Source: Escherichia coli
GTDB lineage: Bacteria > Pseudomonadota > Gammaproteobacteria > Enterobacterales > Enterobacteriaceae
Assembly: GCF_003018255.1 (NCBI RefSeq)
Contig: NZ_CP027440.1
Length of the DNA: 64,000 bases
Direction: 5' to 3' (one strand)
Positions 20,534 to 62,853 of this stretch are shown piece by piece (position 1 is the stretch's first letter; each line of letters opens with the position of its first letter). A program made the position numbers and the translations under genes. The notes beneath the pieces were generated by a model. That model made no database searches. It was not told the DNA's origin and saw only the letters and a program-made list of their open reading frames with translations.

Positions 20534-20600
20534 ACATAACCCTCAAGTGAAAATGGCTTTTTTATGTTGTGTATTGTGTTGTGTGTTTGCAGGCTCTTTC

Positions 20601-20617
20601 ATGCAGGTCTTATGCCA
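20601..20617 (-). promoter_or_regulatory. Candidate sigma-54 (-24/-12) promoter for argT
   Basis: minus-strand tGGcataagacctGCat: GG and GC separated by 10 nt, ~70 nt upstream of argT start; argT is Ntr-regulated. Confidence 0.45.
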
Positions 20618-20798
20618 TCTTTACGACAACAGTAACATTCAACGTTAAATATGTTAATAAGACGTTGCATTATTGTCCTAAAGTTGAAGATAGCAGGTAT
20701 GGCGGTTGAATCGCAGCGTTTCGATTCATCGAAAGGAACAAAATGTCGAGGATTTGATCGCGGTTGCAAAATTGCCCTGAAACAGGGCAACAATGAGG

Positions 20799-21368
20799 TT
20801 ATGCGCCCTGCCAGCGGGCAAAGAGATCTTCAGGAAGGGTTATCGCAAACTGGTCAAGAACACGATTAACCGTCTGATTTATCACATCATCAAGGGATTG
20901 TGGGCGATGATAAAACGCCGGAACGGGAGGCATAATCACCGCACCGATTTCTGCCGCCTGAGTCATTAAACGCAGATGGCCTAAGTGCAGTGGCGTTTCA
21001 CGCACGCAGAGCACCAACGGGCGACGCTCTTTCAGCACCACATCTGCCGCACGGGTCAGTAAGCCATCAGTATAGCTATGGACAATGCCGGACAGGGTTT
21101 TGATTGAACAGGGTAAAATCACCATCCCCAACGTCTGGAAAGAACCGGAAGAAATGCTGGCAGCAATATCGCGCGCATCGTGTGTCACATCAGCTAACGC
21201 CTGCACTTCGCGCAGGGAAAAATCCGTTTCGAGGGATAAGGTCTGGCGCGCTGCCTGGCTCATTACCAGATGCGTTTCGATATCTGTGACATCGCGCAGA
21301 ACCTGTAATAAACGCACGCCATAAATCGCGCCGCTGGCACCGCTGATGCCTACAATGAGTCGTTTCAT
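20799..21368 (-). CDS. ubiX: Flavin prenyltransferase UbiX
   Basis: 189-aa ORF; MKRLIVGISGASGAIYG. Confidence 0.94.
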   Translation of the reverse strand: MKRLIVGISGASGAIYGVRLLQVLRDVTDIETHLVMSQAARQTLSLETDFSLREVQALADVTHDARDIAASISSGSFQTLGMVILPCSIKTLSGIVHSYTDGLLTRAADVVLKERRPLVLCVRETPLHLGHLRLMTQAAEIGAVIMPPVPAFYHRPQSLDDVINQTVNRVLDQFAITLPEDLFARWQGA

Positions 21369-41270: not shown

Positions 41271-41822
41271 ATGAAAAAGAAAACAACACTTAGCGAGGAG
41301 GACCAGGCGCTGTTTCGCCAGTTGATGGCGGGGACTCGCAAGATTAAGCAGGACACGATTGTCCACCGACCGCAGCGTAAAAAAATCAGCGAAGTACCGG
41401 TCAAGCGGTTGATTCAGGAGCAGGCCGATGCCAGCCATTATTTTTCCGATGAGTTTCAGCCATTATTAAATACCGAAGGTCCGGTGAAATATGTTCGCCC
41501 GGATGTCAGCCATTTTGAAGCGAAGAAACTGCGGCGCGGTGATTATTCACCGGAGTTGTTTCTTGATTTGCACGGTCTGACGCAGTTGCAAGCCAAACAG
41601 GAACTGGGGGCGTTGATTGCCGCCTGCCGCCGTGAACATGTGTTTTGTGCCTGCGTGATGCATGGTCACGGGAAGCATATTTTGAAGCAGCAAACGCCGC
41701 TGTGGCTGGCGCAGCATCCACATGTAATGGCATTTCACCAGGCACCAAAAGAGTATGGTGGCGATGCGGCTTTGTTGGTGTTGATTGAAGTGGAAGAGTG
41801 GCTGCCGCCTGAATTGCCCTGA
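41271..41822 (+). CDS. smrB: Smr-domain protein SmrB (ribosome rescue endonuclease)
   Basis: 183-aa ORF (YfcN); divergent from prmB. Confidence 0.88.
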
Positions 41823-41937: not shown

Positions 41938-42780
41938 CTACAATTCATTCAGTACATACTGGAATCGGCACGTAGAATCAATCGGTTGTCGGCTACTGGT
42001 GTTCACATTTACCACGATATCATGTAGCTGTTTATCGGTTACCGGATGCCGTGTGGGAGAAACCGTTACCGTTGATTTATCGCAACCGTAGGAGGTAAAG
42101 GTTAACAGTTCCGAGACCACGCGGCAGTATGCACCTCTGCTATCAAAAACGCTGCCATCACAGAGTTTGCCATCTTCCATCAGGTAGGTCGAAAGCGTGG
42201 TGGTGATTGTCGAGCCATTGGATTGCAACTGTAACGCCTTATTGTGGCTGACGTAATTCTCACTCCACGAGATGTCATACGACGCGACAGGGATCGTCGG
42301 ACATACTGTGGCATGGTTCGTTGGCCCAGTATATCTCCCGAATCCGGGTTGATCTGTGATCGTATAAAAAGAAGCGAGCCACGGGCAACCATAACTGTCG
42401 GACTGAACGGTTATCTTAAACGTCTCATATGCACACTGAAATGTCGCCGTATTTATCCCAGGACAATTCGAGCTATCAGCATTACCGTAGTCAGTTAAGA
42501 TCAACACTGGCGCTGGTCCCGACCCCGTCCACGAAATAACGCTGGCTTGCTCGTTCTTCCTTATGGCATCGTTGTACACCCCATAGGCCGCCTCGTTGGG
42601 AGTTAACACCGTGACATACAAACCTCCGGTGTTATGAATAGACATTTTCCCCTTCCCATAATAAATCTTCACACTGTCGAAACTCGCGCTGGTGAGTTTA
42701 TCCCCGGCATAGCTCTTTGGAACGCTCGCACTCATCACCAGCAACACCAGGCTCGCAAAAATCATTGTCCATTTTTTCAT
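41938..42780 (-). CDS. yfcO: Yfc fimbrial operon protein YfcO (likely tip/adhesin-like component)
   Basis: ORF track 295 aa; likely start at MKKWTMIFASLVLLV signal peptide; exact start uncertain. Confidence 0.75.
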   Translation of the reverse strand: MKKWTMIFASLVLLVMSASVPKSYAGDKLTSASFDSVKIYYGKGKMSIHNTGGLYVTVLTPNEAAYGVYNDAIRKNEQASVISWTGSGPAPVLILTDYGNADSSNCPGINTATFQCAYETFKITVQSDSYGCPWLASFYTITDQPGFGRYTGPTNHATVCPTIPVASYDISWSENYVSHNKALQLQSNGSTITTTLSTYLMEDGKLCDGSVFDSRGAYCRVVSELLTFTSYGCDKSTVTVSPTRHPVTDKQLHDIVVNVNTSSRQPIDSTCRFQYVLNEL

Positions 42781-42781
42781 G

Positions 42782-43306
42782 TTAAAAATACTCAAAGGTT
42801 GCCGTCGCCGTAGCGCTGAAATCACCGGACGTCACATCCCGCCCGCCCTTCGCCTGTAGCCAGGCATTAAAATTGAGACTGTTATTGCCCTGGTTTAGCG
42901 GGAACGTGACACCCGTTGTGCTGTTGACTGGCACCGCCGCGCCTGCCGCCGTTTCAATACCAATCCCAGCTCCGGATGCAGAAGATGAGGCGTCAAAGGC
43001 CAGAAATCCGGGCAGTTCGCTATCTTCCGTTCCCGTCAGCGTTACCCTGACGCTAAACAGCGTGGAGCTTTTGCAATCCTTCAATTGAAATACCAACGGT
43101 ACTCGCTCTGACTGCCCGAGGTTCATTAAATCGCTGGCGGCAATGGTGGGAAAGTGCACCTCCGCCAACAGGCTACCGTTGATCACTGGCGTACAGGATT
43201 TACCGAGCAAATTACCGGTAAAGTGCAGGTTGTCGACCGCCGGGGCAGTAACGCTGTACAACAGCATCAGGCTACAGATAAAAACCAACGCACGCTTTTT
43301 CTTCAT
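42782..43306 (-). CDS. yfcP: Fimbrial minor subunit YfcP
   Basis: 174-aa ORF with signal peptide, fimbrial-subunit-like C-terminus. Confidence 0.85.
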   Translation of the reverse strand: MKKKRALVFICSLMLLYSVTAPAVDNLHFTGNLLGKSCTPVINGSLLAEVHFPTIAASDLMNLGQSERVPLVFQLKDCKSSTLFSVRVTLTGTEDSELPGFLAFDASSSASGAGIGIETAAGAAVPVNSTTGVTFPLNQGNNSLNFNAWLQAKGGRDVTSGDFSATATATFEYF

Positions 43307-43773
43307 TGATAATCCACCTGTAACGTGGCCCAGGCTTCAAAGTCTGCCTCAGGCAAATCGACACCGCTCTTTTTGACCGGTACTGCGGTTAACACCGGTA
43401 AGGCCGTTTCATTCACCACCAGTGCCGTATTGAGCTTAAAGCTCTGCCCTGCCTGTTTAAGCCGAATCGCCAGGCCAGAGATATCGGTGCTAACCGCGGC
43501 ATCGTCAAAGTCGCTCTGCGTACCGCTCCAGCTCAATTTCATTTCCATTGATGGGTCGCGAACCGCCGTATCACAGGTAATGGAATACGGCACGGTTTGC
43601 TCATAGTTACTGCCATTAATGTCATCAACAAAAACATCCTGAAAGGTTATTTCAATGGTTTTACCGTTGCTAATAGTGCAGTTAGGTGGCTGCACTAAAT
43701 AGCCGTGAAAAGAGACATTTGAGAGTGCCATCGAGCTAAAGCCCCACAGCATAAGAAGTGAGATCCGTTTCAT
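43303..43773 (-). CDS. yfcQ: Fimbrial minor subunit YfcQ
   Basis: 156-aa ORF; signal peptide. Confidence 0.85.
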   Translation of the reverse strand: MKRISLLMLWGFSSMALSNVSFHGYLVQPPNCTISNGKTIEITFQDVFVDDINGSNYEQTVPYSITCDTAVRDPSMEMKLSWSGTQSDFDDAAVSTDISGLAIRLKQAGQSFKLNTALVVNETALPVLTAVPVKKSGVDLPEADFEAWATLQVDYQ

Positions 43774-44276
43774 TGGTAATCCACCACAATTGTGGCACTG
43801 GCGTTAAATTCCGCTGCCGATAAGGTTGTACCACTCTGTTTCACCGGCACTGCTTCGAGTGCAGGGACGCCCGAGGAAAAATTAAACGGCAACCATGAAC
43901 CAGACGTTAAGTCGAGTGTTGAGTGATCACTACTTTTCTGAACCCGAATACCAAACCCTGAAATACCTGTGCTGATAACTGTTTCACCGTTGATCACAAC
44001 CGTTGTTGCCCGCATCTGTAAACGCAGGTCATCCATTGCCAGGTTGTTACAAACAAGCGAGTAATCAATGGGTTGTTTATAACCTACCCCATCGATCTTA
44101 TTGATGAATACATTACCAAACTCAACCGTCGCACCATTAACCGTGCAAGGAGGAGGGGCATCAACGAGCACTCGTAAACTCAAATTTACTGATTTACTCC
44201 CTGCAACTGCAAAGTCGCTACCAATACAACACATCAGTAACCATGTTCCCGCCCAGACTGAACAAGATCTTTTCAT
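43770..44276 (-). CDS. yfcR: Fimbrial minor subunit YfcR
   Basis: 168-aa ORF; signal peptide. Confidence 0.85.
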   Translation of the reverse strand: MKRSCSVWAGTWLLMCCIGSDFAVAGSKSVNLSLRVLVDAPPPCTVNGATVEFGNVFINKIDGVGYKQPIDYSLVCNNLAMDDLRLQMRATTVVINGETVISTGISGFGIRVQKSSDHSTLDLTSGSWLPFNFSSGVPALEAVPVKQSGTTLSAAEFNASATIVVDYQ

Positions 44277-44292
44277 ACTTACTTCCCCGTCA

Positions 44293-45042
44293 TTAACCTT
44301 TGCGGCTCAGCTCTTCATCAACCTGACAACTGTTGCCGCTACAGGTGAAAAAGAGTGGCATCCGTGCGCCATAGTCGTTGACATAGGTCAGCACCGGCAC
44401 GCTAGCCATCTTCACCTTGAGCGGTGCGGAGGTTTTTGGCGACATCACTATCGGCGAGAAACCGTCTGCCGGATTGCCATTTTTTTGCGCGCTGGCATTA
44501 CTGAAAATGACGTAATACGGAGTAGGGTTATTGACGGTAAATTCCTGACCGTTACGGGTTAAGGTCACTTTATGCTGCCATGGGTTTTGCATGCTAGCTT
44601 TTTCCAGGGCTTTAGGTCGCCAGAAAAGTTTGATGCGTGTCTGCAGCGCAATTTGTAACGTATTGGCTTTGTTCGATTTCGGCGGAATTTCACGCACATT
44701 GAAATAAAATATCGATTCACGATCGGCAGGCAATTTATGGATATCTGGCAATCCCTGAATTTTCACCTGACCATTCATCATTGCATCAATGCGCTGTACG
44801 GGGGGCAATACTGCCAGCGGCGAACTAATCTTGACGCCCTTTTCATCTTCGATCCAGCTTTGTGCCAGATAAGGCTGTTTCGGGTCGTTATTACGCAGCG
44901 TGACGCTGATGGATTTATCGCTTTCATTAAAAATCAGGCGAGTACGATCGGGCGTTACTGACGCCAGAGCAGAAAAACTTACCGTTGCAGCCAGTAACGA
45001 CAGTACCGTTGCCAATGTTTTGACAGAGAGATGTTTAGTCAT
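44293..45042 (-). CDS. yfcS: Periplasmic fimbrial chaperone (PapD-like)
   Basis: 249-aa ORF; signal peptide. Confidence 0.9.
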   Translation of the reverse strand: MTKHLSVKTLATVLSLLAATVSFSALASVTPDRTRLIFNESDKSISVTLRNNDPKQPYLAQSWIEDEKGVKISSPLAVLPPVQRIDAMMNGQVKIQGLPDIHKLPADRESIFYFNVREIPPKSNKANTLQIALQTRIKLFWRPKALEKASMQNPWQHKVTLTRNGQEFTVNNPTPYYVIFSNASAQKNGNPADGFSPIVMSPKTSAPLKVKMASVPVLTYVNDYGARMPLFFTCSGNSCQVDEELSRKG

Positions 45043-45061: not shown

Positions 45062-47701
45062 TTATTGGTTCGATGAAACAGACATCGGCGGTTCCATTGG
45101 TGTCACCTGTTGTGTCTGCTCCTGAATTACAGGTTGAATATCATGCGTTATGACGGGAGCACTTCCCCCTTTTTGCTGGCATGGCAACAACAAGCCATTG
45201 AACAGGTCATTCGGTAACGGATCTGGCAGGCTGATATCGCAGTGAGATTCTCCCTCCCAGAAAACGGTCATATGTTCACCCGGCTTAACGCCTGCAAGAT
45301 AAACATTACCTTCGTCATCAACCAGCCCAACTTGTTGTTGATTATCGTTTTTCACTTCCGCCCCAAATGGCGGATGGCTGCCATCCTGCAAGCGCAGCAC
45401 TACCATCGCCTTCTCACCGCTGATCACCGCAAATTTACGGTAGCCAATAGCGCCTTCCGTCAGCGTTGCCTGGACCACCGATTGGGTAGCTTCGGCGTTT
45501 TCCGGTAGTTTGTTCAAATCGATATAAGCCTGGTTACGGTAGTAATCATTAACATCTGCCACCACCGCTTTCCCGAACATGTTGGTATAAACGGCGGAAC
45601 CATTACCTTCGACCGGCACATTAGCAACGCCATCGGCGTCGATTAGCAGACGTGTGCCTCCCATATTTTGCGTACGATGCAACGCCCCGCCGTGAGCAGT
45701 CAGTGTTACACCGCCCTGTAAGGAGACCCCCGCAGATGTGTATTGCCCCTCATGGTAGTTTGCACTCAGGTCAACTTTTGCCAGCGTACCGTCATGACTG
45801 TAATAACCATCAAGACTGGTGTGATTTTCACTGGTTCCGGCGCTCAACGTATAGTGGCTAGCGTCATCGATGCGGTGATACAAACTCGCCTGGCTGCTGT
45901 CGGCACCACTGCCATAATTGCCGTTGTAACTGATGGTGCTGTTGTCACCCCATGGCAAACTCAAGGACAGATAAACACCTTTGTCGGCACTTTTATCATA
46001 TTCGTAGCGATAACCGGTGAGAGAAACGCTCAGGTTGCGAAGACTTCCTAAATTGAAATAATGAGAAAGCATCATGTTGTAGTTGGTCTGATCCTCGCGA
46101 TCCCAATAGGTATGGTGAGAATAATTGAGATAGACCGAAACGCGCGCATCCCTAAAGTTCTGGTTGTAAGTGACCGTGTACATTTCCTTGTCGTTACCCG
46201 TGCGCGCACGGTCGGTGTCGTTCGCATCCAGATACTCACTCATGGTCATGTAGTTTTTTTCAGAGAAGCGATATCCGGCAAACGTCACCCGACTGTTGAG
46301 TTCATCGAAATCTTTGGCATAGCTGACGCGATAAGAGTTGCCGTCCAGCGTTTTGTTGCCATACACGCTGTTATCGTCGAGTTGAACACGAGAGTGAGTG
46401 ACATCAAACGCTAGCGCTCCGAACAGCGCGAGGTCACGACCGAGGCCTAACGCTGCCGACTGGTAGTTTTCATCGGCCAATGCCCCGCCGTAGAGCGACC
46501 AGCCATTCGCAATCCCCCATGACGCCTCACCGCCCGAGAAGAAGCTGCCTGCAACCTGATGGTCCCAGTTTTGTGGACGCCCCATTGTCACTTTGTAACG
46601 CACCTGACCGGGGCGGGTCAGAAACGGCATGGACGCCGTGCTGACGTCATATTCCTGTACCTGACCGTTTTGTTCTTCAATGCGGACATGCAGCGTGCCA
46701 GATACGGAATCGCCAATATCCTGAATGCGGAATGGACCTGCGGGCACCTGGGTTTCGTAAATGACACGGCCCATTTGGGTTACGGTCACTTTAGCGGTAG
46801 TGTGTGCAACGCCGGAAATATCGGGTGCGTAGCCGCGCATGTTTGGCGGTAACATTTGATCATCGGTACTGATGCTGCCGCCAATGTAACTGAAGCCATC
46901 AAAAATATCGGAGTTGAGATAATCTTCACCCAGCGAAAGTTTGGCTTTTAATGACGGCAAGGCGCGCCAGGCGTAGTAACGGCTCCACTCCCAGTTTTTT
47001 TGCGTACCGCTATCATCAGTGTCGCCGTCATCGTTACTGCGGGTATGTTGGTAATCGCTCTGCCAGTCGGCTCGTAAGCGCCACGGCCCCACGTTAACGC
47101 CGACCGTACCATTACCGCTGATGTCGTTAGTGTCATCCCCCCCATTTTCATGTCGGGTTTGTGCGTTGATACTGTAATCGGCAATAAGCCCAGGAATCCC
47201 CTCATCCCAACGCGAAGGTGGGTCCCAGTCATCGTCAGTGTATTCGAGATATGCCTGTGGCACAGAAACTAAGAGCGCAGATTGACTTAAATCGCCCTTA
47301 ATTTCCATACCTCCTATTTGGTCAGTTTTCAGACATTGTCCATCATGACCCCATTGCAAACTCTTCGCAAAATCATCTTTGAAGCCAAACTGGGCTATCA
47401 GTTCAGGTGGTAAGCAGGCATATGATTTATTCGGATCGTTTTCAGCTACATACCAATAGATATCGTATTCATCAGGTAATGGGTGATTATTTACATGAAC
47501 ACGTAAATTGTATTTCCCTGGTTCAACATACCCTTTTTGAGAAAAACGCCCCAGATCAATTTTGGTATTTCCTTTTAACTCCAGAAATCGAGCATCAAAT
47601 TGAATGGTATCATCTGCCAGTACATTAAAAGGACTCCCGGAAATTGCCAGAGCAATCCACCATGAAAGCCCCCGTAAACGAAGAAAAGAATGTTCAGGCA
47701 T
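45062..47701 (-). CDS. yfcU: Outer-membrane fimbrial usher, intact
   Basis: 879-aa uninterrupted ORF; FimD/PapC-like usher; interrupted in K-12. Confidence 0.9.
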   Translation of the reverse strand: MPEHSFLRLRGLSWWIALAISGSPFNVLADDTIQFDARFLELKGNTKIDLGRFSQKGYVEPGKYNLRVHVNNHPLPDEYDIYWYVAENDPNKSYACLPPELIAQFGFKDDFAKSLQWGHDGQCLKTDQIGGMEIKGDLSQSALLVSVPQAYLEYTDDDWDPPSRWDEGIPGLIADYSINAQTRHENGGDDTNDISGNGTVGVNVGPWRLRADWQSDYQHTRSNDDGDTDDSGTQKNWEWSRYYAWRALPSLKAKLSLGEDYLNSDIFDGFSYIGGSISTDDQMLPPNMRGYAPDISGVAHTTAKVTVTQMGRVIYETQVPAGPFRIQDIGDSVSGTLHVRIEEQNGQVQEYDVSTASMPFLTRPGQVRYKVTMGRPQNWDHQVAGSFFSGGEASWGIANGWSLYGGALADENYQSAALGLGRDLALFGALAFDVTHSRVQLDDNSVYGNKTLDGNSYRVSYAKDFDELNSRVTFAGYRFSEKNYMTMSEYLDANDTDRARTGNDKEMYTVTYNQNFRDARVSVYLNYSHHTYWDREDQTNYNMMLSHYFNLGSLRNLSVSLTGYRYEYDKSADKGVYLSLSLPWGDNSTISYNGNYGSGADSSQASLYHRIDDASHYTLSAGTSENHTSLDGYYSHDGTLAKVDLSANYHEGQYTSAGVSLQGGVTLTAHGGALHRTQNMGGTRLLIDADGVANVPVEGNGSAVYTNMFGKAVVADVNDYYRNQAYIDLNKLPENAEATQSVVQATLTEGAIGYRKFAVISGEKAMVVLRLQDGSHPPFGAEVKNDNQQQVGLVDDEGNVYLAGVKPGEHMTVFWEGESHCDISLPDPLPNDLFNGLLLPCQQKGGSAPVITHDIQPVIQEQTQQVTPMEPPMSVSSNQ

Positions 47702-47786
47702 CTACGTATCCATCCATGATTATTATAATTTAGTTATCTTTTATTTATAAACCCCATAACATTGCAGTTATGGGGGAACAGCATAA

Positions 47787-48353
47787 TTAGAGATATGTAA
47801 TCTGGAACGTCGTTAGCGTTTCAAACGGCGCTGGGGTTGGTGTTACCGCTGCAGTTTCACCTACTAACCAGGCTTTAAAGTTCAACGTTTGTTTCTGTTT
47901 GCCTTTTCCTGTTGAACTGTCCATCGCGATGTCCTGATCGATGCCTGCCCCCAGGTCATAACCAGTACCACGTTGGTCGCCAATCACCAGACTTACATTT
48001 GGAATTTCAGTTCCATTATCCATGTTAGACAGGGAATAGTTTTTTGAGTTGCCGGAGTACGGATTACCAGTGAATGTCGTGGTCATTGTCGTTTCAGTAT
48101 TGAAATTACAATCCTGTAAACGAATCTGGAAATCTTTAGGTGTGGTAGTCTTGCCACCGGTTAAAGAACCTGTACCAATGCTGCCCATATCCACTTCCAG
48201 TTTATGATCGTCAGGAACAATCGAGCACGGAGAGTCTTCAATTGTGCCGTAAAATCTCACTGTACCGTTGTTACCTGCGGCAACGACTGATGCTGAAGTC
48301 AGCGCCCCCATGAGCATTGCCGTGGCAACTGCTGCTTTTACAAACTTACTCAT
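47787..48353 (-). CDS. yfcV: Fimbrial major subunit YfcV
   Basis: 188-aa ORF; signal peptide; C-terminal ..TFQITYL donor-strand motif. Confidence 0.88.
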   Translation of the reverse strand: MSKFVKAAVATAMLMGALTSASVVAAGNNGTVRFYGTIEDSPCSIVPDDHKLEVDMGSIGTGSLTGGKTTTPKDFQIRLQDCNFNTETTMTTTFTGNPYSGNSKNYSLSNMDNGTEIPNVSLVIGDQRGTGYDLGAGIDQDIAMDSSTGKGKQKQTLNFKAWLVGETAAVTPTPAPFETLTTFQITYL

Positions 48354-48960
48354 TATTTGTCCTTAAATCATAAATAATTAGAATATAAGCCAACTGAAAT
48401 ATTGACGCAGAGCTTCTTCAATTTTTACAGCGACTTTTAACCAGCCAATGAACAGATTTTCAGCTCCTGAAAAAACAGGTTCCTTGATATAATATTCTTT
48501 GGCGTGCCGAACATATTGATATTTTAATATGACTGACGCAATTTAGATTTTCTAACATTCAAAGTTAGAAATGCTTAATTAATAGGCAGGAATAATAATT
48601 ACTGAAATTTTTCATCTCAATCATGAAGAATAAGTTCAAAAAAACGGCAAATGCAAAAACCCAGTGAATAAATTAAAGTCAAAAACAATCACATGGCAAT
48701 GACTATCTTGTGATATTAATTTCGCAACGATATAATATTAAAACACTATAATTAATATAAAATCAAGACCCAATTATATTTTTCACTTTAGTCATTATTT
48801 ACCTAAAAATGCTTCCAGAAAAATAATTTATGAATAAAAGTAAATTCTCTTTCAATATGTAAATTTTTACAAATAAAAGCGTCATGCCGTATAAAATAAA
48901 GACCATTCGATCACAAGCGGATCATTGTTAGTACAATAAGATTGAATAAATTCAACATTG
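48354..48960 (-). promoter_or_regulatory. AT-rich upstream regulatory region of the yfc fimbrial operon
   Basis: ~600 bp strongly AT-rich non-coding sequence 5' of yfcV; typical of nucleoid-protein-silenced fimbrial promoters. Confidence 0.5.
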
Positions 48961-48961
48961 C

Positions 48962-49000
48962 CAGAAAAAATAAAGGCCCGATAGCTTACGCCAGCGGGCC
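48962..49000 (-). terminator. Rho-independent terminator downstream of sixA
   Basis: hairpin ggcccg..cgggcc followed on minus strand by tttattttttc. Confidence 0.7.
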
Positions 49001-49013
49001 TTGTGCATGCGTA

Positions 49014-49499: not shown

Positions 49500-49701
49500 A
49501 TTGCACCGCTTTTGTTAACCAGATTCGCCCGTTTTCTTTCATCTGAAACCAGAGAAAGAAAACGGTGGCCGGCATTGTGCCTTATCCATTCACCGAATGA
49601 AACGCTGTTTTTTACCTCAATGGCGTAAGTATAGTCAATATGCGTTTACATTTTGAGCAACACTCCGCCATTCAGCGCGGATTCATATAGCTTTGACCTT
49701 C

Positions 49702-51846
49702 TTATTGCAGGTCAGTTGCAGTTGTTTTCCAAAAACTTTCCCCACGCTTGCTCATCTCGACTAAACGCTCGCAAGGGGTAAAACGGGAACCATACTGCGT
49801 GGCCAGTCGTTGCATTATTGCAACCACTTCACCCGCACCGAGAGAATCGATGTAGCGGAACGGACCACCGAGAAATGGCGGAAAACCAATGCCAAATACC
49901 GCGCCAATATCTCCGTCACGCACGCTACGGATAACCTGCTCGTCCAGACAACGTACTGCTTCATTCAGCATCAACATCACACACCGTTCAGCTACCTGCG
50001 GTGCGGAGAGTCGCCCCTGCCCTTGTGTGCCAATGAGCGGGTAAATGGCGGGATCGACCTGTTTTTTGCTTTTACGCCCTTTCTGACCATAAAGATAGAA
50101 ACCCCGGCCATTTTTTCTGCCTTTGCGATCGTCGTTCAAAATTGAAGAAACAACATTTGCAGGCGCGCTAAAACGTTCTCCATAAGCGGCTTCCAGTACA
50201 GGAATAATTTTAGTCCCGGTGTCGATTCCTACCTCATCCAAAAGTTGGATTGGGCCTACCGGAAAACCAAATTTCACCAGCGCGGTATCAATGTGCTCTA
50301 CCCGTTCACCTTCGGTCAACATGCGGATAGCTTCATTAATGTAAGGCGCTAAGATGCGATTGACGTAAAACCCGGCTTTGTCACGCACGACAATTGGCGT
50401 TTTGCCCTGTTTTTTCGCCAGTTTTACTGTGGTGGCGATGGTTTGCGCCGATGTACCGGCATGGGGAATAATTTCTACCAACGGCATTTTTTCCACCGGA
50501 CTGAAGAAATGCAGGCCAATAACTTGCTCAGGTCGCGCGGCGTGAGCGGCGATATCGCCAATCGGTAAAGATGACGTGTTCGAAGCAAAGATGGTATGAG
50601 CGGCGCAATTTTGCTCAACTTCCGCCACCATTTGTTGTTTTAATTCGAGATTTTCAAACACCGCTTCAATAATCAGATCGCGATGGGCAAAGCCGCAATA
50701 GTCCGTCGTTCCGGAGATTAATGCCAGCTGTCTGTCACGTTCGCTGGCTTTGAGATGACGACGGCGAACTTTGCCCTCCAGCTGATCCCAACTGTACTTC
50801 AGCGCATGATTTATGCCCTGCGGGTTGATATCTTTAATTCTGACCGGAAGCCCCGCTTTACAAGCAGTGACATAAGCAATACCGCCGCCCATCAAGCCAC
50901 CACCTAAAATTCCCACGCTGTTTAATGGCGCAGGCGGCGCATCACTGCCAGGATCTTTCTTCACGTCCGTACTGGCAAAAAAGATACTACGCAGCGCCTG
51001 CGATTGCGGCGTCATCACCAGTTCGCCAAAAGCACGGGCTTCAGCGTCATAGCCGCCACTGGTGCCCTGCGCTAATCCCGTTTCGACAACCTCCAGGATG
51101 CGTTCTGTCGCCGGATAGTTACCTTGAGTTTTGTGTTCTGTTTTCTTACCGACCATTTTGAACAGCAGCGCACGACCTAACGGCCCCGCCAGAATACGCT
51201 CGCGTACAGGTAGAGGGCGTGAAGATGGGCGATCCTGCTTTGCCAGCTCAACAGCGGCTTCCAGTAAAATGGATTGCGGAACGACGTCATCCACCAGCCC
51301 CAGCTTTAATGCCTGTTTCGCCCGAAGTTGTTTTCCAGTGAGGATCATCTCCAATGCTGTGCTGACACCTATCAGGCGCGGTAAACGCTGGGTGCCGCCT
51401 GAACCGGGTAATAATCCAAGTTGTACTTCAGGCAAACCGAGCACCGTTTTAGGATCGTCAGTACACATGCGACCGTGGCACGCCAGCGCCAACTCCAGCC
51501 CACCGCCCAGGCAAGCGCCATGAATAGCCGCGATAACCGGAACGGGCAAAGCATGAATCTCCGCCATCAACTGTTGGCCCTGCCGCGCCAGTGCTTCCGC
51601 TTCTTGCGCCGTTTTGCAGTTGGCGATCATGTTGATGTCTGCGCCAGCAATGAAGTTGTCTGGTTTCGCGGAGATAAACACCACGCCGCGCAACTCTTTG
51701 TTTTCACGGAGTTGCTTAATAATGGCGCGCACCTGCGAGGCAAACTCCGCCTTCAGGGTATTCATTTTCTCACCCGGTACGTCGATGGTGATAACAGCAA
51801 TGTTGTCCAGACGGACATTAAGGGTAAACGCTGATGCCATTTCCAT
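49702..51846 (-). CDS. fadJ: Anaerobic fatty-acid oxidation multifunctional enzyme (enoyl-CoA hydratase / 3-hydroxyacyl-CoA dehydrogenase)
   Basis: 714-aa ORF. Confidence 0.95.
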
Positions 51847-53156
51847 TATTCCGCCTCCACAACCATTGCCGCGCCAAGCCCACCCGCAGCACAGGCGGTC
51901 ACTAAACCAAATCCACCGCCGCGACGGCGAAGTTCATGCAATGTCTGGGTAATCATCCGCGCGCCGGTCGCCGCGAAGGGATGCCCGTAAGCAATCGAAC
52001 CGCCAAGCACGTTAAATTTGCTATCGTCCATTTCGCCAGTGGCATGTGCACGCCCCAGTACATCACGAGCAAAACGTTCGCTACCCAGCAACTGAATATT
52101 CGCCAGTGTCTGAGCTGCAAAGGCTTCGTGCATATCGAGCAATGTCAGATCGCTCATTGTCAAACCGGCACGTTCCAGCGCCAGCGGCGTTGACCAGGCC
52201 GGACCGAGCAACATGTCCTGCCAGACATCTATCGCAGTAAATGCGTAACTGCGCAGATACCCCAGCGGTACCAGCCCTAATTCTTTCGCCCGCGATTCGG
52301 TCATCAGGATCACCGCCGCTGCGCCATCGGTCAGCGGCGTACTGTTTGCTGCCGTTACCGTCCCGTGTTTACGATCAAACGCCGGACGCAACTTTGCGTA
52401 ATCAGCAAGCGAGGAATTACCGCGAATATTGTTGTCTTCGGCAAGCGGTTGTTTATAAGGAGGGATAAAGGCAGTCATCACCTCTTCTTTGAGTTTACCG
52501 TCTGACCACGCCTGAGCGGCTCGCTGATGCGAACGGTGCGCTAATGCATCTTGCTGTTCGCGAGTAATACCGTAGGTTTTCGCCATTTGTTCAGCGGTGT
52601 CGCCCATCCGCAAGCCAGTAGAGTATTCCGCCACTGCCGGAGGCACCGGCATTAAGTCGCGCAAACGCAGGCGAGAGAAGAGTTTCAGGCGCTGGCTCAT
52701 GGTTCGAGCTTTGTTGACATCAACCAGCACGCGCGCCAGTTTTTTACTGACGCCAATTGGCAATACGGAAGAGGAATCGGCCCCACCGGCAATCCCCGCG
52801 CGAATAGTTCCCGCCATCAGGCTTTCTGCGACGTTTGCAATCGCCTGGAAACTGGTAGCGCAAGCGCGGCTGACGCTGTAAGCATCGGTATGCACATTCA
52901 TTCCGGTACCGAGAACAATTTCACGCGCAATGTTGGGGGCTTCAGGCATTTGTACGACCTGACCAAAAACCAGTTGTTCAATCACTTCGGCGGGGATCTC
53001 GCTGCGTGCCAGCAGTTCGCCTACCACCATCTTCCCCAAATCAACAGCAGGAATGCCATGAAAAGCCGTCGCCTGGCGGGCAAAAGGCGTACGTAAACCG
53101 CTAACAATGGCGATACGATCGCCCTGGCGGGTAACCAGCGGTAAAACCTGACCCAT
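51846..53156 (-). CDS. fadI: 3-ketoacyl-CoA thiolase (anaerobic)
   Basis: 436-aa ORF; stop overlaps fadJ start. Confidence 0.95.
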
Positions 53157-53183
53157 AACACTCCCCTGTAAAATAATAAATAA

Positions 53184-53200
53184 AGTGGTCTGACCTGATC
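53184..53200. promoter_or_regulatory. Putative FadR operator in fadIJ promoter
   Basis: agtggtctgacctgatc resembles FadR consensus (..TGGTCnGACcTGtt); ~30-45 bp upstream of fadI start. Confidence 0.55.
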
Positions 53201-57451: not shown

Positions 57452-57526
57452 GTCCTCTTAGTTAAATGGATATAACGAGCCCCTCCTAAGGGCTAATTGC
57501 AGGTTCGATTCCTGCAGGGGACACCA
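57452..57526 (+). tRNA. argW: tRNA-Arg (anticodon CCU)
   Basis: 75-nt sequence read directly, matches argW as recalled; anticodon loop cuCCUaa; ends ..ACACCA. Confidence 0.95.
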
Positions 57527-57646
57527 GATACCCTTCAAACCAAATCTACCTTCACCCCGTAAAAGATGGGTTTGGCAGCACACTTGCCCTATATCTACTC
57601 ATTTTTACTGCAACAGGTTGAAATCTCAGCACTGTCAGAAAGCGCT

Positions 57647-57888
57647 GATGACTAAACAGCCCTGGGCCGGGCGATGTAACCATCATACAGAATCCTGATA
57701 GCGAAATATGGCGTGACTCGATACTTCACTCTGCAATGCATTCCTTGATGAATTCGCAGGCCCGTGATACACGGGACACGTGGCTGAATGACGACAATGT
57801 CCTGGAAATCAGCGAACCGCGTATCCGGAGTACATTTGAGCGACTGTACCAGAACATGAATGAGGCGTTTGGATTAGGTGATTATTAG
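57647..57888 (+). other. Orphan reading-frame fragment of unknown origin
   Basis: open frame of ~79 codons ending ..NDDNVLEISEPRIRSTFERLYQNMNEAFGLGDY*; no convincing start or RBS identified. Confidence 0.3.
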
Positions 57889-57967
57889 CAGGGGTAAGCA
57901 TTTTTGTATTATTATTTTCCGGTTGAGGGATATGGAGATATCGACAACAACCGGAAAAAGTTTACGT

Positions 57968-59215
57968 CTATATTGCTGAAGGTACAGGCGTTTCCATAAC
58001 TATTTGCTCGCGTTTTTTACTCAGGAAGAAAATGCCAAATAGCAACATCAGGCAGACAATACCCGAAATTGCGAAGAAAACTGTCTGGTAGCCTGCGTGG
58101 TCAAAGAGTATCCCAGTCGGCGTTGAAAGCAGCACAATCCCAAGCGAACTGGCAATTTGAAAACCAATCAGAAAGATCGTCGACGACAGGCGCTTATCAA
58201 AGTTTGCCACGCTGTATTTGAAGACGGATATGACACAAAGTGGAACCTCAATGGCATGTAACAGCTTCACTAATGAAATAATCCAGGGGTTAACGAACAG
58301 CGCGCAGGAAAGGATACGCAACGCCATAATCACAACACCGATAAGTAATGCATTTTTTGGCCCTACCCGATTCACAAAGAAAGGAATAATCGCCATGCAC
58401 AGCGCTTCGAGTACCACCTGGAATGAGTTGAGATAACCATACAGGCGCGTTCCTACATCGTGTGATTCGAATAAACCTGCATAAAAGACAGGAAAGAGTT
58501 GTTGATCAAAAATGTTATAGAAAGACCACGTCCCCACAATAAATATGACAAAAACCCAGAAGTTTCGATCCTTGAAAACTGCGATAAAATCCTCTTTTTT
58601 TACCCCTCCCGCATCCGCCGCTATGCACTGGTGATCCTTATCTTTAAAACGCATGTTGATCATCATAAATACAGCGCCAAATAGCGAGACCAACCAGAAG
58701 TTGATATGGGGACTGATACTAAAAAATATACCAGCAAAGAACGCGCCAATAGCATAGCCAAAAGATCCCCAGGCGCGCGCTGTTCCATATTCGAAATGAA
58801 AATTTCGCGCCATTTTTTCGGTGAAGCTGTCAAGCAAACCGCATCCCGCCAGATACCCCAGGCCAAAAAAGAGCGCCCCCAGAATTAGACCTACAGAAAA
58901 ATTGCTTTGCAGTAACGGTTCATAAACGTAAATCATAAACGGTCCGGTCAAGACCAGAATGAAACTCATACACCAGATGAGCGGTTTCTTCAGACCGAGT
59001 TTATCCTGAACGATGCCGTAGAACATCATAAATAGAATGCTGGTAAACTGGTTGACCGAATAAAGTGTACCTAATTCCGTCCCTGTTAATCCTAGATGTC
59101 CTTTCAGCCAAATAGCGTATAACGACCACCACAGCGACCAGGAAATAAAAAAGAGAAATGAGTAACTGGATGCAAAACGATAGTACGCATTTCTGAATGG
59201 AATATTCAGTGCCAT
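57968..59215 (-). CDS. cscB: Sucrose:H+ symporter (MFS)
   Basis: 415-aa ORF; MALNIPFRNAYYRFASSYSFLFF.. recognised as CscB. Confidence 0.93.
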   Translation of the reverse strand: MALNIPFRNAYYRFASSYSFLFFISWSLWWSLYAIWLKGHLGLTGTELGTLYSVNQFTSILFMMFYGIVQDKLGLKKPLIWCMSFILVLTGPFMIYVYEPLLQSNFSVGLILGALFFGLGYLAGCGLLDSFTEKMARNFHFEYGTARAWGSFGYAIGAFFAGIFFSISPHINFWLVSLFGAVFMMINMRFKDKDHQCIAADAGGVKKEDFIAVFKDRNFWVFVIFIVGTWSFYNIFDQQLFPVFYAGLFESHDVGTRLYGYLNSFQVVLEALCMAIIPFFVNRVGPKNALLIGVVIMALRILSCALFVNPWIISLVKLLHAIEVPLCVISVFKYSVANFDKRLSSTIFLIGFQIASSLGIVLLSTPTGILFDHAGYQTVFFAISGIVCLMLLFGIFFLSKKREQIVMETPVPSAI

Positions 59216-59286
59216 AATTACCTGCCTGTCGTTAAAAAATTCATGTCCTATTTAGAGATAAGAGCGGCCTCGCCGTTTACTTCTCA

Positions 59287-60201
59287 CTATTCCAGTTCTT
59301 GTCGACATGGCAGCGCTGTCATCGCCCCTTTCGCCGTTACTGCAAGCGCTCCGCAACGTTGAGCGAGATCGATAATTCGTCGCATTTCTCTTTCATCTGT
59401 AGATAATCCCGTAGAGGACAGACCTGTGAGTAACCCGGCAACGAACGCATCTCCCGCCCCCGTGCTATCGACACAATTCACAGACATTCCAGCAAAATGG
59501 TGAACTTGTCCTCGATAACAGACCACCACCCCTTCTGCACCTTTAGTCACCAACAGCATGGCGATCTCATACTCTTTTGCCAGGGCGCATATATCCCAAT
59601 CGTTCTGTGTTTTTCCACTGATAAGTCGCCATTCTTCTTCCGAGAGCTTGACGACATCCGCCAGTTGTAGCGCCTGCCGCAAACACAAGCGGAGCAAATG
59701 CTCGTCTTGCCATAGATCTTCACGAATATTGGGATCGAAGCTGACAAAACCTCCGGCATGCCGGATCGCCGTCATCGCAGTAAATGCGCTGGTACGCGAA
59801 GGCTCGGCAGACAACGCAATTGAACAGAGATGTAACCATTCGCCATGTCGCCAGCAGGGCAAGTCTGTCGTCTCTAAAAAAAGATCGGCACTGGGGCGGA
59901 CCATAAACGTAAATGAACGTTCTCCTTGATCGTTCAGATCGACAAGCACCGTGGATGTCCGGTGCCATTCATCTTGCTTCAGATACGTGATATCGACACC
60001 CTCAGTTAGCAGCGTTCTTTGCATTAACGCACCAAAAGGATCATCACCGACCCGACCTATAAACCCACTTGTTCCGCCTAATCTGGCGATTCCCACCGCA
60101 ACGTTAGCTGGCGCGCCGCCAGGACAAGGTAGTAGCCGCCCGTCTGATTCTGGCAAGAGATCTACGACCGCATCCCCTAAAACCCATACTTTGGCTGACA
60201 T
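59287..60201 (-). CDS. cscK: Fructokinase (PfkB family)
   Basis: 304-aa ORF; ribokinase-family motifs (..DSTGAGDAF..). Confidence 0.9.
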   Translation of the reverse strand: MSAKVWVLGDAVVDLLPESDGRLLPCPGGAPANVAVGIARLGGTSGFIGRVGDDPFGALMQRTLLTEGVDITYLKQDEWHRTSTVLVDLNDQGERSFTFMVRPSADLFLETTDLPCWRHGEWLHLCSIALSAEPSRTSAFTAMTAIRHAGGFVSFDPNIREDLWQDEHLLRLCLRQALQLADVVKLSEEEWRLISGKTQNDWDICALAKEYEIAMLLVTKGAEGVVVCYRGQVHHFAGMSVNCVDSTGAGDAFVAGLLTGLSSTGLSTDEREMRRIIDLAQRCGALAVTAKGAMTALPCRQELE

Positions 60202-60306
60202 TTTTTTCCCTTAAATTCATCTGACTTACGCATAGTGATAAACCTCTTTTTCGCAAAATCGTCATGGATTTACTAAAACATGCATATTCGATCACAAAAC
60301 GTCATA

Positions 60307-60318
60307 GTTAACGTTAAC
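60307..60318. promoter_or_regulatory. Putative CscR operator 1 (perfect 12-bp palindrome)
   Basis: gttaacgttaac in the cscK-cscA divergent intergenic region. Confidence 0.5.
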
Positions 60319-60370
60319 ATTTGTGATATTCATCGCATTTATGAAAGTAAGGGACTTTATTTTTATAAAA

Positions 60371-60382
60371 GTTAACGTTAAC
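60371..60382. promoter_or_regulatory. Putative CscR operator 2 (same 12-bp palindrome)
   Basis: second exact copy of gttaacgttaac, 64 bp from the first, ~35 bp upstream of cscA start. Confidence 0.5.
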
Positions 60383-60416
60383 AATTCACCCAATTTGCTT
60401 AACCAGGATGATAAAA

Positions 60417-61850
60417 ATGACGCAATCTCGATTACATGCGGCGCAAAACGCACTAGCAAAACTTCACGAGCGCCGAGGTAACACTTTCTATCCCCATTTT
60501 CACCTCGCGCCTCCCGCCGGGTGGATGAACGATCCAAACGGCCTAATCTGGTTTAACGATCGTTATCACGCGTTTTATCAACATCACCCGATGAGCGAAC
60601 ACTGGGGGCCAATGCACTGGGGACATGCCACCAGCGACGATATGATCCACTGGCAGCATGAGCCTATTGCGCTAGCGCCAGGAGACGAGAATGACAAAGA
60701 CGGGTGTTTTTCAGGTAGTGCTGTCGATGACAATGGTGTCCTCTCACTTATCTACACCGGACACGTCTGGCTCGATGGTGCAGGTAATGACGATGCAATT
60801 CGCGAAGTACAATGTCTGGCTACCAGTCGGGATGGTATTCATTTCGAGAAACAGGGTGTGATCCTCACTCCACCAGAAGGCATCATGCACTTCCGCGATC
60901 CTAAAGTGTGGCGTGAAGCCGACACATGGTGGATGGTAGTCGGGGCGAAAGATCCAGGCAACACGGGGCAGATCCTGCTTTATCGCGGCAGTTCATTGCG
61001 TGAATGGACTTTCGATCGCGTACTGGCCCACGCTGATGCGGGTGAAAGCTATATGTGGGAATGTCCGGACTTTTTCAGCCTTGGCGATCAGCATTATCTG
61101 ATGTTTTCCCCGCAGGGAATGAATGCCGAGGGATACAGTTACCGAAATCGCTTTCAAAGTGGCGTAATACCCGGAATGTGGTCGCCAGGACGACTTTTTG
61201 CACAATCCGGGCATTTTACTGAACTTGATAGCGGGCATGACTTTTATGCACCACAAAGCTTTTTAGCGAAGGATGGTCGGCGTATTGTTATCGGCTGGAT
61301 GGATATGTGGGAATCGCCAATGCCCTCAAAACGTGAAGGCTGGGCAGGCTGCATGACGCTGGCGCGCGAGCTATCAGAGAGCAATGGCAAACTTCTACAA
61401 CGCCCGGTACACGAAGCTGAGTCGTTACGCCAGCAGCATCAATCTATCTCTCCCCGCACAATCAGCAATAAATATGTTTTGCAGGAAAACGCGCAAGCAG
61501 TTGAGATTCAGCTGCAGTGGGCGTTGAAGAACAGTGATGCCGAACATTACGGATTACAGCTCGGCACTGGAATGCGGCTGTATATTGATAACCAATCTGA
61601 GCGACTTGTTTTGTGGCGGTATTACCCACACGAGAATTTAGATGGCTACCGTAGTATTCCCCTCCCGCAGGGTGACATGCTCGCCCTAAGGATATTTATC
61701 GATACATCATCCGTGGAAGTATTTATTAACGACGGGGAGGCGGTGATGAGTAGCCGAATATATCCGCAGCCAGAAGAACGGGAACTGTCGCTCTATGCCT
61801 CCCACGGAGTGGCTGTGCTGCAACATGGAGCACTCTGGCAACTGGGTTAA
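60417..61850 (+). CDS. cscA: Sucrose-6-phosphate hydrolase / invertase (GH32)
   Basis: 477 aa from MTQSRLHAAQN..; GH32 N-terminal motif WMNDPNG. Confidence 0.93.
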   Translation: MTQSRLHAAQNALAKLHERRGNTFYPHFHLAPPAGWMNDPNGLIWFNDRYHAFYQHHPMSEHWGPMHWGHATSDDMIHWQHEPIALAPGDENDKDGCFSGSAVDDNGVLSLIYTGHVWLDGAGNDDAIREVQCLATSRDGIHFEKQGVILTPPEGIMHFRDPKVWREADTWWMVVGAKDPGNTGQILLYRGSSLREWTFDRVLAHADAGESYMWECPDFFSLGDQHYLMFSPQGMNAEGYSYRNRFQSGVIPGMWSPGRLFAQSGHFTELDSGHDFYAPQSFLAKDGRRIVIGWMDMWESPMPSKREGWAGCMTLARELSESNGKLLQRPVHEAESLRQQHQSISPRTISNKYVLQENAQAVEIQLQWALKNSDAEHYGLQLGTGMRLYIDNQSERLVLWRYYPHENLDGYRSIPLPQGDMLALRIFIDTSSVEVFINDGEAVMSSRIYPQPEERELSLYASHGVAVLQHGALWQLG

Positions 61851-61857
61851 CATAATA

Positions 61858-62853
61858 TCAGGTGGAACAACGGATCAACAGCGGGCAAGGGATCCGCGTC
61901 ACTCTTCCCCCTTCACGATCTTCAATAATATGCAATGCAGCTTCCCGCCCGATAATGTCATGTGGAAGCTGAATTGTGGTCAGCGGCGGTAAAAACAGAT
62001 GCCCGACGCCAACCAGATTATCAAAGCCCATTACGGCGACATCCTGCGGGATACGTACCCCCTTCGCCAGGAGAACCTGATAAGCGACAAAGGCTGCGCG
62101 ATCGTTACCACATATCAGAACATCAAAATCTGGTTTGCCCGATTTGAAGTGGTCATTGAGTAAACTTGCGAGATCGGTGTAGTGATCATCACCTGTTGCC
62201 ATGTGAAATTGTTTCACCTCAGCCAGATCTCGTCCAGCATCACGCCAGGCCTGCTCAAATCCCTGCCGACGATACCCTGTTGCCAACGCACTTTCCGGTA
62301 GCCAGAAGCATAACGGTTGACGATAGCCCGCCGCGAGCAAATGCTGTGTTGATTCATATTGTGCAGTGTAATCATCAGGGATATAACTGGGTAACGCTGG
62401 GTCATCCGCCACACAGTTCGCCAATACAATATTTTCACCATACAGAGACTCAGGCAGCGAGATATGTCGCAGCCCCATTGTAGTATAGATAATGCCATCC
62501 GGACGGTGGGCAAGCAGCTGACGTGCCGCGCGGGCAGCGTCATCTTCAGAAAAAATATTGATTAAAAAACTATTCCAGCCAAACTCGCTGGCGGTTTGCT
62601 CAATGGCAAGCAGAATATCAACAGAGAAAGGAGTGGTGGCCGTGTCCTGCGCCAGCACGGCGAGAGTCGACGGCTTACGTCCTTGAGCGCGCATCTTACG
62701 GGCGGAAAGATCAGGAACATAATTCAGGGTCTGGATTGCCTGCAATACGCGGTCACGCGTTGCAGGACGCACAGATTCTGCATTATGCATCACCCGGGAG
62801 ACTGTCATCATCGACACTCCCGCCAGGCGTGCGACATCCTTTAATGAAGCCAT
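61858..62853 (-). CDS. cscR: LacI-family sucrose operon repressor
   Basis: 332 aa from MASLKDVARLAGVSMMTVSRV (HTH); ORF track over-extended upstream to 63051. Confidence 0.9.
   Translation of the reverse strand: MASLKDVARLAGVSMMTVSRVMHNAESVRPATRDRVLQAIQTLNYVPDLSARKMRAQGRKPSTLAVLAQDTATTPFSVDILLAIEQTASEFGWNSFLINIFSEDDAARAARQLLAHRPDGIIYTTMGLRHISLPESLYGENIVLANCVADDPALPSYIPDDYTAQYESTQHLLAAGYRQPLCFWLPESALATGYRRQGFEQAWRDAGRDLAEVKQFHMATGDDHYTDLASLLNDHFKSGKPDFDVLICGNDRAAFVAYQVLLAKGVRIPQDVAVMGFDNLVGVGHLFLPPLTTIQLPHDIIGREAALHIIEDREGGRVTRIPCPLLIRCST

Follow-up and report, generated by a model that had tools for sequence, protein, structure and literature searches.

The window, a 64,000-nucleotide stretch of Escherichia coli DNA, contains seven open yfc reading frames, all on the minus strand and in the order yfcV-U-S-R-Q-P-O (Table 1). 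The operon is flanked by smrB and sixA, and the order sixA-fadJ-fadI is that of the K-12 position; both the location between smrB and sixA-fadJ-fadI and the gene order are those of the Yfc type. The components of a chaperone-usher system were found, namely an usher with the domains PF13954, PF00577 (Usher, E = 8e-188) and PF13953, a two-domain PapD-like chaperone (PF00345 and PF02753) and four PF00419 proteins with signal-peptide features. These pilins possess Cys pairs and C-termini of the form ...TYL, VDYQ or FEYF. The N-termini of all seven products carry 2-4 K/R residues, a hydrophobic 10-mer and small-x-small sites, a signal-peptide call that is a crude heuristic (mean Kyte-Doolittle value of the 10-mer 1.7-3.0). 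The first-pass annotation had described yfcV to yfcO as uninterrupted and all equipped with signal peptides, and these observations agree with it. Since each structural gene is open and export-competent in appearance, assembly is unblocked at the sequence level. No regulator gene was found within the yfc locus.

Table 1. Features of the yfc locus, with positions in the window.
Feature	Position	Strand	Evidence
yfcV, major pilin, 188 aa	47787-48353	-	PF00419, E = 1.4e-17
yfcU, outer-membrane usher, 879 aa	45062-47701	-	PapC_N + Usher + PapC_C
yfcS, periplasmic chaperone, 249 aa	44293-45042	-	PapD_N E = 2.6e-37; PapD_C E = 4.7e-11
yfcR, minor pilin, 168 aa	43770-44276	-	PF00419
yfcQ, minor pilin, 156 aa	43303-43773	-	PF00419
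yfcP, minor pilin, 174 aa	42782-43306	-	PF00419
yfcO, DUF2544 protein, 280 aa	41938-42780	-	PF11245, E = 3.6e-76
yfcV-sixA intergenic region, presumed promoter/regulatory	48354-49013	-	AT-rich
Hairpin between yfcV and yfcU	47752-47775	-	Fold
Codon 577 TAT (Tyr), homologous to K-12 amber	45971-45973	-	Alignment with K-12 yfcU
Mosaic breakpoint, yfcS/yfcR junction	44200-44400		Sliding-window identity

The PGAP model of yfcR in strain 104 is 182 aa long and starts 42 nt farther upstream; the window counterpart of this 42-nt extension contains a TGA. The 168-aa form is equipped with a signal peptide of its own and with a GGGGAAG Shine-Dalgarno sequence, fits the lengths of its homologues (163-170 aa) and is the form called by PGAP in JNE23-011, and yfcR was therefore counted as intact. 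The yfcR of the closest relative, DETEC-S792, carries a nonsense codon, so decay does occur within this lineage.

The usher gene starts with ATG and its checked translation contains no internal stop, which confirms the earlier call of a single ORF. The interruption of the K-12 usher had likewise been stated correctly, as MG1655 yfcU is annotated in RefSeq as a pseudogene (b4661) and has one in-frame TAG. Alignment of the two genes, as had been suggested, places this TAG at K-12 codon 579, where the window has TAT (Tyr577). A 40-mer search detected the K-12 amber in 363 of 5,426 complete genomes and, among the matches listed, the carriers are all K-12 laboratory derivatives. A natural strain differing from K-12 by one base has Tyr and an intact yfcU CDS. 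Moreover, the usher CDS is unbroken in all seven non-K-12 reference loci examined (CFT073, O157, MSB1_1A, H9, strain 104, APEC E14033 and JNE23-011). Because the amber is confined to K-12 derivatives among the listed matches, an intact yfcU is the rule in E. coli, and the K-12 amber looks, from these comparisons, like a peculiarity of the laboratory line. With seven intact reference ushers, intactness is not a distinguishing property of the strain, contrary to what the first-pass annotation implied. Nor is it new: published surveys already say so, with yfc being core-associated and intact in Wurpel 2013 (PMC3559732). Ushers disrupted by IS1 exist in other strains. The step from an interrupted usher to a cryptic operon survives in its premise only, as "cryptic" in the literature means not expressed in the laboratory; PMC3559732 describes yfc as "functional but cryptic". 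Forced expression of K-12 yfc raised adherence (Korea 2010, as related by citing papers).

Under the scheme of Wurpel 2013, the Yfc type is set by usher phylogeny together with locus position. The window usher matched NF011812 with 1783.6 bits (cut-off 972), the next usher model reached 1104, under its own cut-off, and identity to five other yfcU alleles was 77-95% aa; it thus groups with YfcU/StfC on the NF011812 score and pairwise identities, used in place of a tree. Best NCBIfam matches across the operon follow Salmonella enterica Stf (stfACDEFGH) in the same order, being StfA for YfcV (under its cut-off), NF011812 for the usher, StfD for YfcS, and StfE, StfF and StfG for YfcR, YfcQ and YfcP. 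However, the cut-off is passed for the usher subfamily alone; the remaining matches stay under their equivalog cut-offs. Salmonella Stf occupies a different chromosomal site from yfc. Among solved structures the best relative of the usher is PapC, aligned over residues 34-842 with 727 bits, as compared with 268 bits for FimD, which is consistent with membership of the P-pilus-like (pi) class. Even so, the window usher has a C-terminal tail of about 37 aa without a PapC counterpart, the subunit set and adhesin differ from those of the P pilus, and no resemblance of YfcO to PapG was detected.

At least five allele families of the yfc operon exist, with DNA identities of 65-90% between them, and they have diverged as far as different genera (dS saturated). 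High nucleotide diversity of yfc genes, and trees discordant with MLST, have been reported previously (PMC4850163). K-12 yfcOPQRSUV (b2332-b2339) shares its site, order, gene count and domains with the window operon. However, the two are far from near-identical: DNA identity is about 75% in S-U-V, the remainder and the upstream region are unalignable, and protein identity ranges from 44 to 83% (81% for YfcU, 83% for YfcS, 67% for YfcV and 44-56% for YfcR, Q, P and O). The uropathogenic strain CFT073 has the same locus, architecture and intact usher, but represents a third allele family (77% aa for YfcU, 71% aa and 70.9% nt for yfcV, 46% aa for YfcO).

The two halves of the window operon have different nearest relatives. 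The promoter region and yfcV-U-S are closest to the MSB1_1A-type allele, present in 556 complete genomes, at 93-95% aa (93% for both YfcV and YfcS), with a divergent patch (76-88% nt) from the 3′ part of yfcV through the 5′ end of yfcU. In contrast, yfcR-O of that type is merely 46-57% identical to the window at the protein level. Here the nearest relative is the O157:H7/B1-type allele, with 69-83% aa (83% for YfcQ, which is only 48-53% identical to the remaining alleles, and 76% for YfcP) and 82-86% nt across 1,352 genomes. The V, U and S products of this type resemble those of K-12 (85-90% aa identity, against 67-80% to the window). In a sliding window, identity to MSB1_1A drops from 90% to 56% at about position 44300, while O157-type identity climbs to 68-80%. 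By sequence comparison the window operon is a rare mosaic in which the assembly module (promoter, V, U, S) and the tip module (R, Q, P, O) belong to different, deeply divergent families. Of 5,426 complete genomes, 77 share the combination, O78:H4 poultry strains among them; each module, searched at ≥99% identity, occurs in an equal number of genomes (77), and poultry and O78:H4 isolates abound in the lineage.

Across all seven yfc genes dN/dS was 0.05-0.14, indicating purifying selection and long-term maintenance. The synonymous divergence involved is considerable: relative to the MSB1_1A type dS is 0.38-0.45, for the tip genes it exceeds 1 when the O157 type is the reference, and for the usher it is about 2.3 in comparison with K-12 and CFT073. 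In the flanking sixA and fadJ it is 0.05-0.06, far below the divergence of the yfc alleles. A broader proposal, which we regard as rather unlikely, is that the yfc site is a long-lived balanced polymorphism in which a receptor-binding tip cassette (yfcR-O) is swapped independently of the assembly cassette.

YfcO, which PGAP names a "StfH/YfcO family fimbrial adhesin", consists of a hypervariable N-terminal region of about 160 aa and a conserved C-terminal region of about 120 aa with 8 Cys, a pattern that fits a two-domain tip adhesin (FimH/PapG-like). Among 5,426 complete genomes the window-type N-terminal domain is absent outside the 77-genome lineage, and such a lineage-specific domain might direct these strains to hosts or tissues of their own. 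A domain search of YfcO gave no match to PF00419, phmmer against PDB sequences returned no solved relative, and hhalign against 24 Yfc pilins detected no pilin-domain similarity (probability 3.9%). An AF2 model built on a 6-sequence alignment had a mean pLDDT of 58.6, with residues 162-280 below 50, and a Foldseek search of this poor model against the PDB retrieved nothing significant, just generic Ig-like hits at TM values under 0.3. The idea that structure could demonstrate YfcO to be a two-domain adhesin was therefore dropped, and at annotation level YfcO is a putative adhesin.

The 660-bp yfcV-sixA intergenic region has a GC content of 28-31%, compared with about 50% in its flanks. It is 94-99% identical in nucleotide sequence to the MSB1_1A-type allele, and no alignment to K-12 was obtained. 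In a scan for promoters and terminators, whose counts equalled chance, promoter-like hexamers (e.g. 48620..48592) numbered 14 against 12.4 expected, and no promoter is claimed. The region may be subject to H-NS silencing and is probably silent in the laboratory. A fimS-like invertible promoter was rejected: there is no recombinase gene nearby, and the one imperfect 17-nt inverted repeat (48363-48379 / 48822-48838, 82% complementary, enclosing 442 bp) is unremarkable because such matches are expected at ~30% GC. Between yfcV and yfcU a U/A-rich tract comes after a 9-bp hairpin (CCCCAUAAC/GUUAUGGGG). The 101-nt segment containing the hairpin folds with z = -1.2, which is only suggestive of a possible attenuator. 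By analogy with other chaperone-usher operons, the hairpin may help to set the pilin-to-usher ratio.

Taken together, these data argue that the window carries a complete and selectively maintained Yfc operon, the counterpart of Stf and a member of the pi class, at its usual smrB-sixA site (probability roughly 0.8), and we infer that it can express and assemble Yfc filaments. Transcription would proceed from the intergenic region upstream of yfcV. From what is known of the family, all seven products would be exported by Sec, and YfcS would cap each pilin by donor-strand complementation. YfcU, predicted to be a PapC-like 24-strand barrel with a plug and N-terminal and C-terminal domains, would then polymerise the tip (YfcR, Q and P, perhaps with YfcO at its end) followed by the YfcV rod through donor-strand exchange. 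That the two modules are compatible with each other is assumed from the persistence of their combination.

The operon could instead be a silent relic whose reading frames are intact but which is never expressed in nature, so that intactness has no phenotype. The upstream region is very AT-rich, a composition characteristic of fimbrial or horizontally acquired DNA under silencing, the locus has no regulator gene, and yfc is labelled "cryptic" in the literature. Moreover, DETEC-S792, a close relative, tolerates the nonsense codon in yfcR, and ushers elsewhere are disrupted by IS1. However, a dN/dS of 0.05-0.14 over dS values from 0.4 to saturation requires long-term selection on the proteins, and yfcV transcripts have been reported as differentially expressed in STEC. 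We therefore consider a relic unlikely.

Very unlikely is a dysfunctional hybrid, in which the usher and chaperone of one allele family fail to handle the tip subunits of another, leaving just a YfcV rod or no assembly at all. The window tip module is indeed only 46-57% identical (aa) to the usual tip module of the MSB1_1A type. Yet the O157/B1-type tip family is paired with a K-12-like assembly module in O157 and, by counts, in many other genomes, and since this tip occurs with different assembly modules, broad module compatibility is suggested. In addition, 77 genomes have the combination fixed, at ≥99% identity, and purifying selection acts on the genes of the mosaic. Lastly, the pseudogene status of K-12 yfcU might suggest that most E. 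coli have a defective operon and that the usher was exceptionally restored in this one strain. This reading is already refuted by the amber, found in 363 genomes of which those listed are all K-12 laboratory derivatives, together with the Tyr of the natural strain one base from K-12; seven non-K-12 reference ushers are intact as well, in agreement with Wurpel 2013 (PMC3559732).

An intact Yfc operon is the state of almost every natural E. coli. With at least five allele families at 65-90% DNA identity, K-12 is a poor reference for the locus, and "yfc" stands for different antigens or adhesins from one strain to the next. The consequences extend to typing, where the widely used yfcV urovirulence marker, which derives from CFT073, picks up the CFT073-type allele only. 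Published primers for this marker had no match in the window within 3 mismatches; among the loci checked they match those of CFT073 and H9 only. The identity threshold of VirulenceFinder is 85% (PMC7512150). As the primer sites are absent and yfcV identity is under this threshold, the window strain would type as yfcV-negative although its Yfc operon is complete. The modularity of the mosaic hints at a shuffling of receptor specificity between lineages, a modest lead for work on host tropism in poultry-associated E. coli.

The window usher DNA is 100% identical to the genes encoding WP_001114071.1 in strain 104 and others. Over 14.6 kb of the fadJ region the window and strain 104 differ by 396 mismatches, and the best 24-kb match to the window among complete genomes is 99.6% identical.

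The usher gene yfcU begins with ATG and lies second in a compact cluster of minus-strand genes, flanked as in K-12. The ORF list confirmed the claim of the first-pass annotation that it is a single 879-codon ORF, and its translation contains no internal stop; the other six genes, likewise claimed to be uninterrupted, were also open. The usher scored 1783.6 bits against the NCBIfam usher subfamily NF011812 (cut-off 972). Its best solved relative was PapC (727 bits over residues 34-842), with FimD far behind (268 bits), which fits a P-pilus-like (pi-class) system. Each non-usher component had its best NCBIfam match in its Salmonella Stf counterpart, and gene order is identical; these scores fell below the equivalog cut-offs. 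A heuristic check found basic residues, a hydrophobic core and small-x-small sites at all seven N-termini, in agreement with the signal peptides previously assigned, and a Cys pair and aromatic C-terminal motifs in the pilins. In every testable feature the locus is a Yfc-type chaperone-usher operon.

Coordinates of the yfc operon, its flanks and the sucrose-utilisation (csc) cluster in the window
Feature	Position	Strand	Length	Evidence or remark
yfcV	47787-48353	-	188 aa	Pfam Fimbrial domain
yfcU (usher)	45062-47701	-	879 aa	Pfam PapC_N, Usher (E = 8e-188), PapC_C
yfcS (chaperone)	44293-45042	-	249 aa	Pfam PapD_N and PapD_C
yfcR	43770-44276	-	168 aa	Pfam Fimbrial domain
yfcQ	43303-43773	-	156 aa	Pfam Fimbrial domain
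yfcP	42782-43306	-	174 aa	Pfam Fimbrial domain
yfcO	41938-42780	-	280 aa	Pfam DUF2544
smrB (flank)	41271-41822	+		ORF/synteny comparison
sixA-fadJ-fadI (other flank)	from 49014	-		ORF/synteny comparison
tRNA-Arg(CCU)	57452-57526			Followed by the csc cluster
MFS transporter (csc)	57968-59215	-
kinase (csc)	59287-60201	-
cscA	60408-61850	+
LacI-type regulator (csc)	from 61858	-

The K-12 usher had been described as interrupted, and the lesion was located. In MG1655, yfcU is annotated as a pseudogene (b4661) whose translation has one in-frame stop, a TAG at codon 579 (record position 2453265-2453267); its counterpart in the window is TAT (Tyr577, 45971-45973). A 40-mer with the TAG at its centre, in which the mutation falls inside every 28-mer seed, matched 363 of 5,426 complete genomes, and the matches listed were all K-12 derivatives, including MG1655, W3110, BW25113, DH1, DH10B, HB101 and MC4100. 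Moreover, the yfcU of a dog isolate, one base from that of K-12, has Tyr at the amber position and is annotated as an intact CDS. Therefore, the K-12 lesion is a single nonsense mutation, one that appears restricted to the laboratory lineage. The usher CDS was intact in the other loci inspected (strain 104, MSB1_1A, H9, O157:H7 strain 8368, CFT073, APEC E14033 and JNE23-011), and natural disruptions, such as IS1 insertions, are sporadic.

Wurpel 2013 (PMC3559732) described Yfc as core-associated and yfc as the sole cluster intact in every genome of its set; as this set included MG1655, the amber codon was evidently left uncounted. Papers citing Korea 2010 report that forced expression of K-12 yfc raised adherence. 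This reported gain, like the intact scoring, is in tension with an amber at usher codon 579; it might be explained by read-through, by an usher that works in two pieces or by an effect independent of the usher. The step from interrupted to cryptic in the first-pass annotation does not match published usage, since in Wurpel 2013 and the citing papers 'cryptic' denotes a lack of expression and not a broken usher. An intact yfc is the default state and is already known, and it is reasonable to see no obstacle to fimbrial assembly in the window's sequence. What remains of interest is a rare mosaic allele with a lineage-specific YfcO N-terminal domain.

A point overlooked in the first-pass annotation is that the operon is not the K-12 allele. 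Its flanks are 95.5-96.7% identical to K-12; within it, only yfcS-U-V (75% nt) and a section of yfcP (68%) can be aligned with K-12, the upstream region cannot, and the ushers are 81% identical as proteins. Searches of the 5,426 complete genomes with three different ushers found the K-12 type (at least 90% to K-12) in 3,095, the CFT073 type (at least 95% to CFT073) in 1,224, the MSB1_1A type (90-95% to the window) in 556, the O157 type (about 83% to K-12) in 428 and the window type (at least 99% to the window) in 77. The last included O78:H4 APEC isolates, which we take to be ST117 / phylogroup G, and many further poultry isolates. The closest 24-kb match in this genome set was 99.6% identical.

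Amino acid identities of YfcV, U and S were 93, 95 and 93% to the MSB1_1A type and 67, 79 and 80% to the O157 type; those of YfcR, Q, P and O were 54, 51, 57 and 46%, and 77, 83, 76 and 69%, respectively. A 200-nt sliding window located the change of allele type near 44300, where yfcS meets yfcR. From sixA to about codon 60 of yfcV the sequence was 94-99% identical to MSB1_1A, and the 3′ part of yfcV with the 5′ end of yfcU formed a more divergent patch (76-88%). The tip module (yfcR-Q-P-O) reached at least 99% identity in 77 genomes, equal to the usher count; elsewhere its identity was just 80-90%, in 1,352 genomes, O104:H4 and many others among them. Such modularity recurs between K-12 and O157 (V, U and S 85-90% aa, R-O 42-55%) and between CFT073 and H9 (V and U 98-99%, YfcO 51%). 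Ren 2016 (PMC4850163) reported yfc genes to be highly diverse and discordant with MLST, so the general phenomenon is known, even if the present chimera is undescribed so far.

Nei-Gojobori estimates gave dS of 0.38-0.45 for V, U and S against MSB1_1A, 1.1-2.1 for R-O against O157 and about 2.3 for the usher against K-12 or CFT073; for sixA and fadJ in the same strains it was 0.05-0.06. Across all yfc genes dN/dS was 0.05-0.14. The alleles are thus either very old or imported and have been kept by purifying selection, which speaks against yfc being a decaying cryptic locus. In YfcO, the N-terminal 160 codons (pN 0.28, pS saturated) and C-terminal 120 codons (dN/dS 0.08) agree with the variable-N, conserved-C pattern in the alignment.

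Strain 104, despite its identical usher, differs from the window at 49700-53200 (fadJ-fadI), with 396 mismatches over 14.6 kb that gather beyond about position 10250 of its locus, from the fadJ region onward; this pattern points to a possible recombination boundary close outside the operon. In H9 (locus 1-1810), an AAA-family ATPase gene and a hypothetical gene adjoin yfcO in the place taken elsewhere by smrB, and may be an inserted two-gene cassette.

The PGAP model of yfcR in strain 104 has 182 aa, starting 42 nt upstream of the window's 168-aa form; a TGA interrupts this extension in the window. The shorter form has the length of its homologues, its own signal peptide and a GGGGAAG ribosome-binding site, and is the form annotated by PGAP in JNE23-011, on which grounds we consider the window yfcR intact. 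The PGAP discrepancy among genomes arises from a C/T difference from strain 104 at 44305-44318 (3′ end of yfcS), through which the extension MKSR... is cut short as MKS-stop; read in the overlapping yfcS frame, the window has CTG (Leu) at this codon. In DETEC-S792, the closest relative, yfcR (locus 20336-20842) is marked as a pseudogene and has a Gln-to-stop change close to the 3′ end, at a codon that is a CAG-type Gln in the window; single tip genes thus do decay within the lineage.

By analogy with the family, Sec would export all Yfc products, YfcS would cap the subunits and the PapC-like usher would direct ordered donor-strand exchange, tip subunits preceding the YfcV rod. Position, size, conservation pattern and PGAP family name point to YfcO as the putative adhesin; structural support for this role was sought and none obtained. 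The 660 bp upstream of yfcV have 28-31% GC, compatible with H-NS-type silencing, and a promoter scan of this region gave matches at no more than chance level. A statistically undistinctive 9-bp hairpin between yfcV and yfcU (47752-47775) could be a candidate attenuator.

Published yfcV urovirulence primers matched only the CFT073 and H9 loci, with no match in the window, K-12, MSB1_1A or O157 alleles. The window yfcV is 70.9% identical (nt) to that of CFT073, below the VirulenceFinder 85% rule that excludes 'cryptic' yfcV variants (PMC7512150), and is not the CFT073-type marker. A strain with a fully intact window-type operon would therefore score yfcV-negative. Elsewhere in the window (57452-62853), tRNA-Arg(CCU) is followed by the csc cluster, whereas in CFT073 this site carries the UpaE/ipuAB island and then dsdCXA. 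The closest relative has a 5′-truncated dsdX directly after the csc cluster, and then dsdA.
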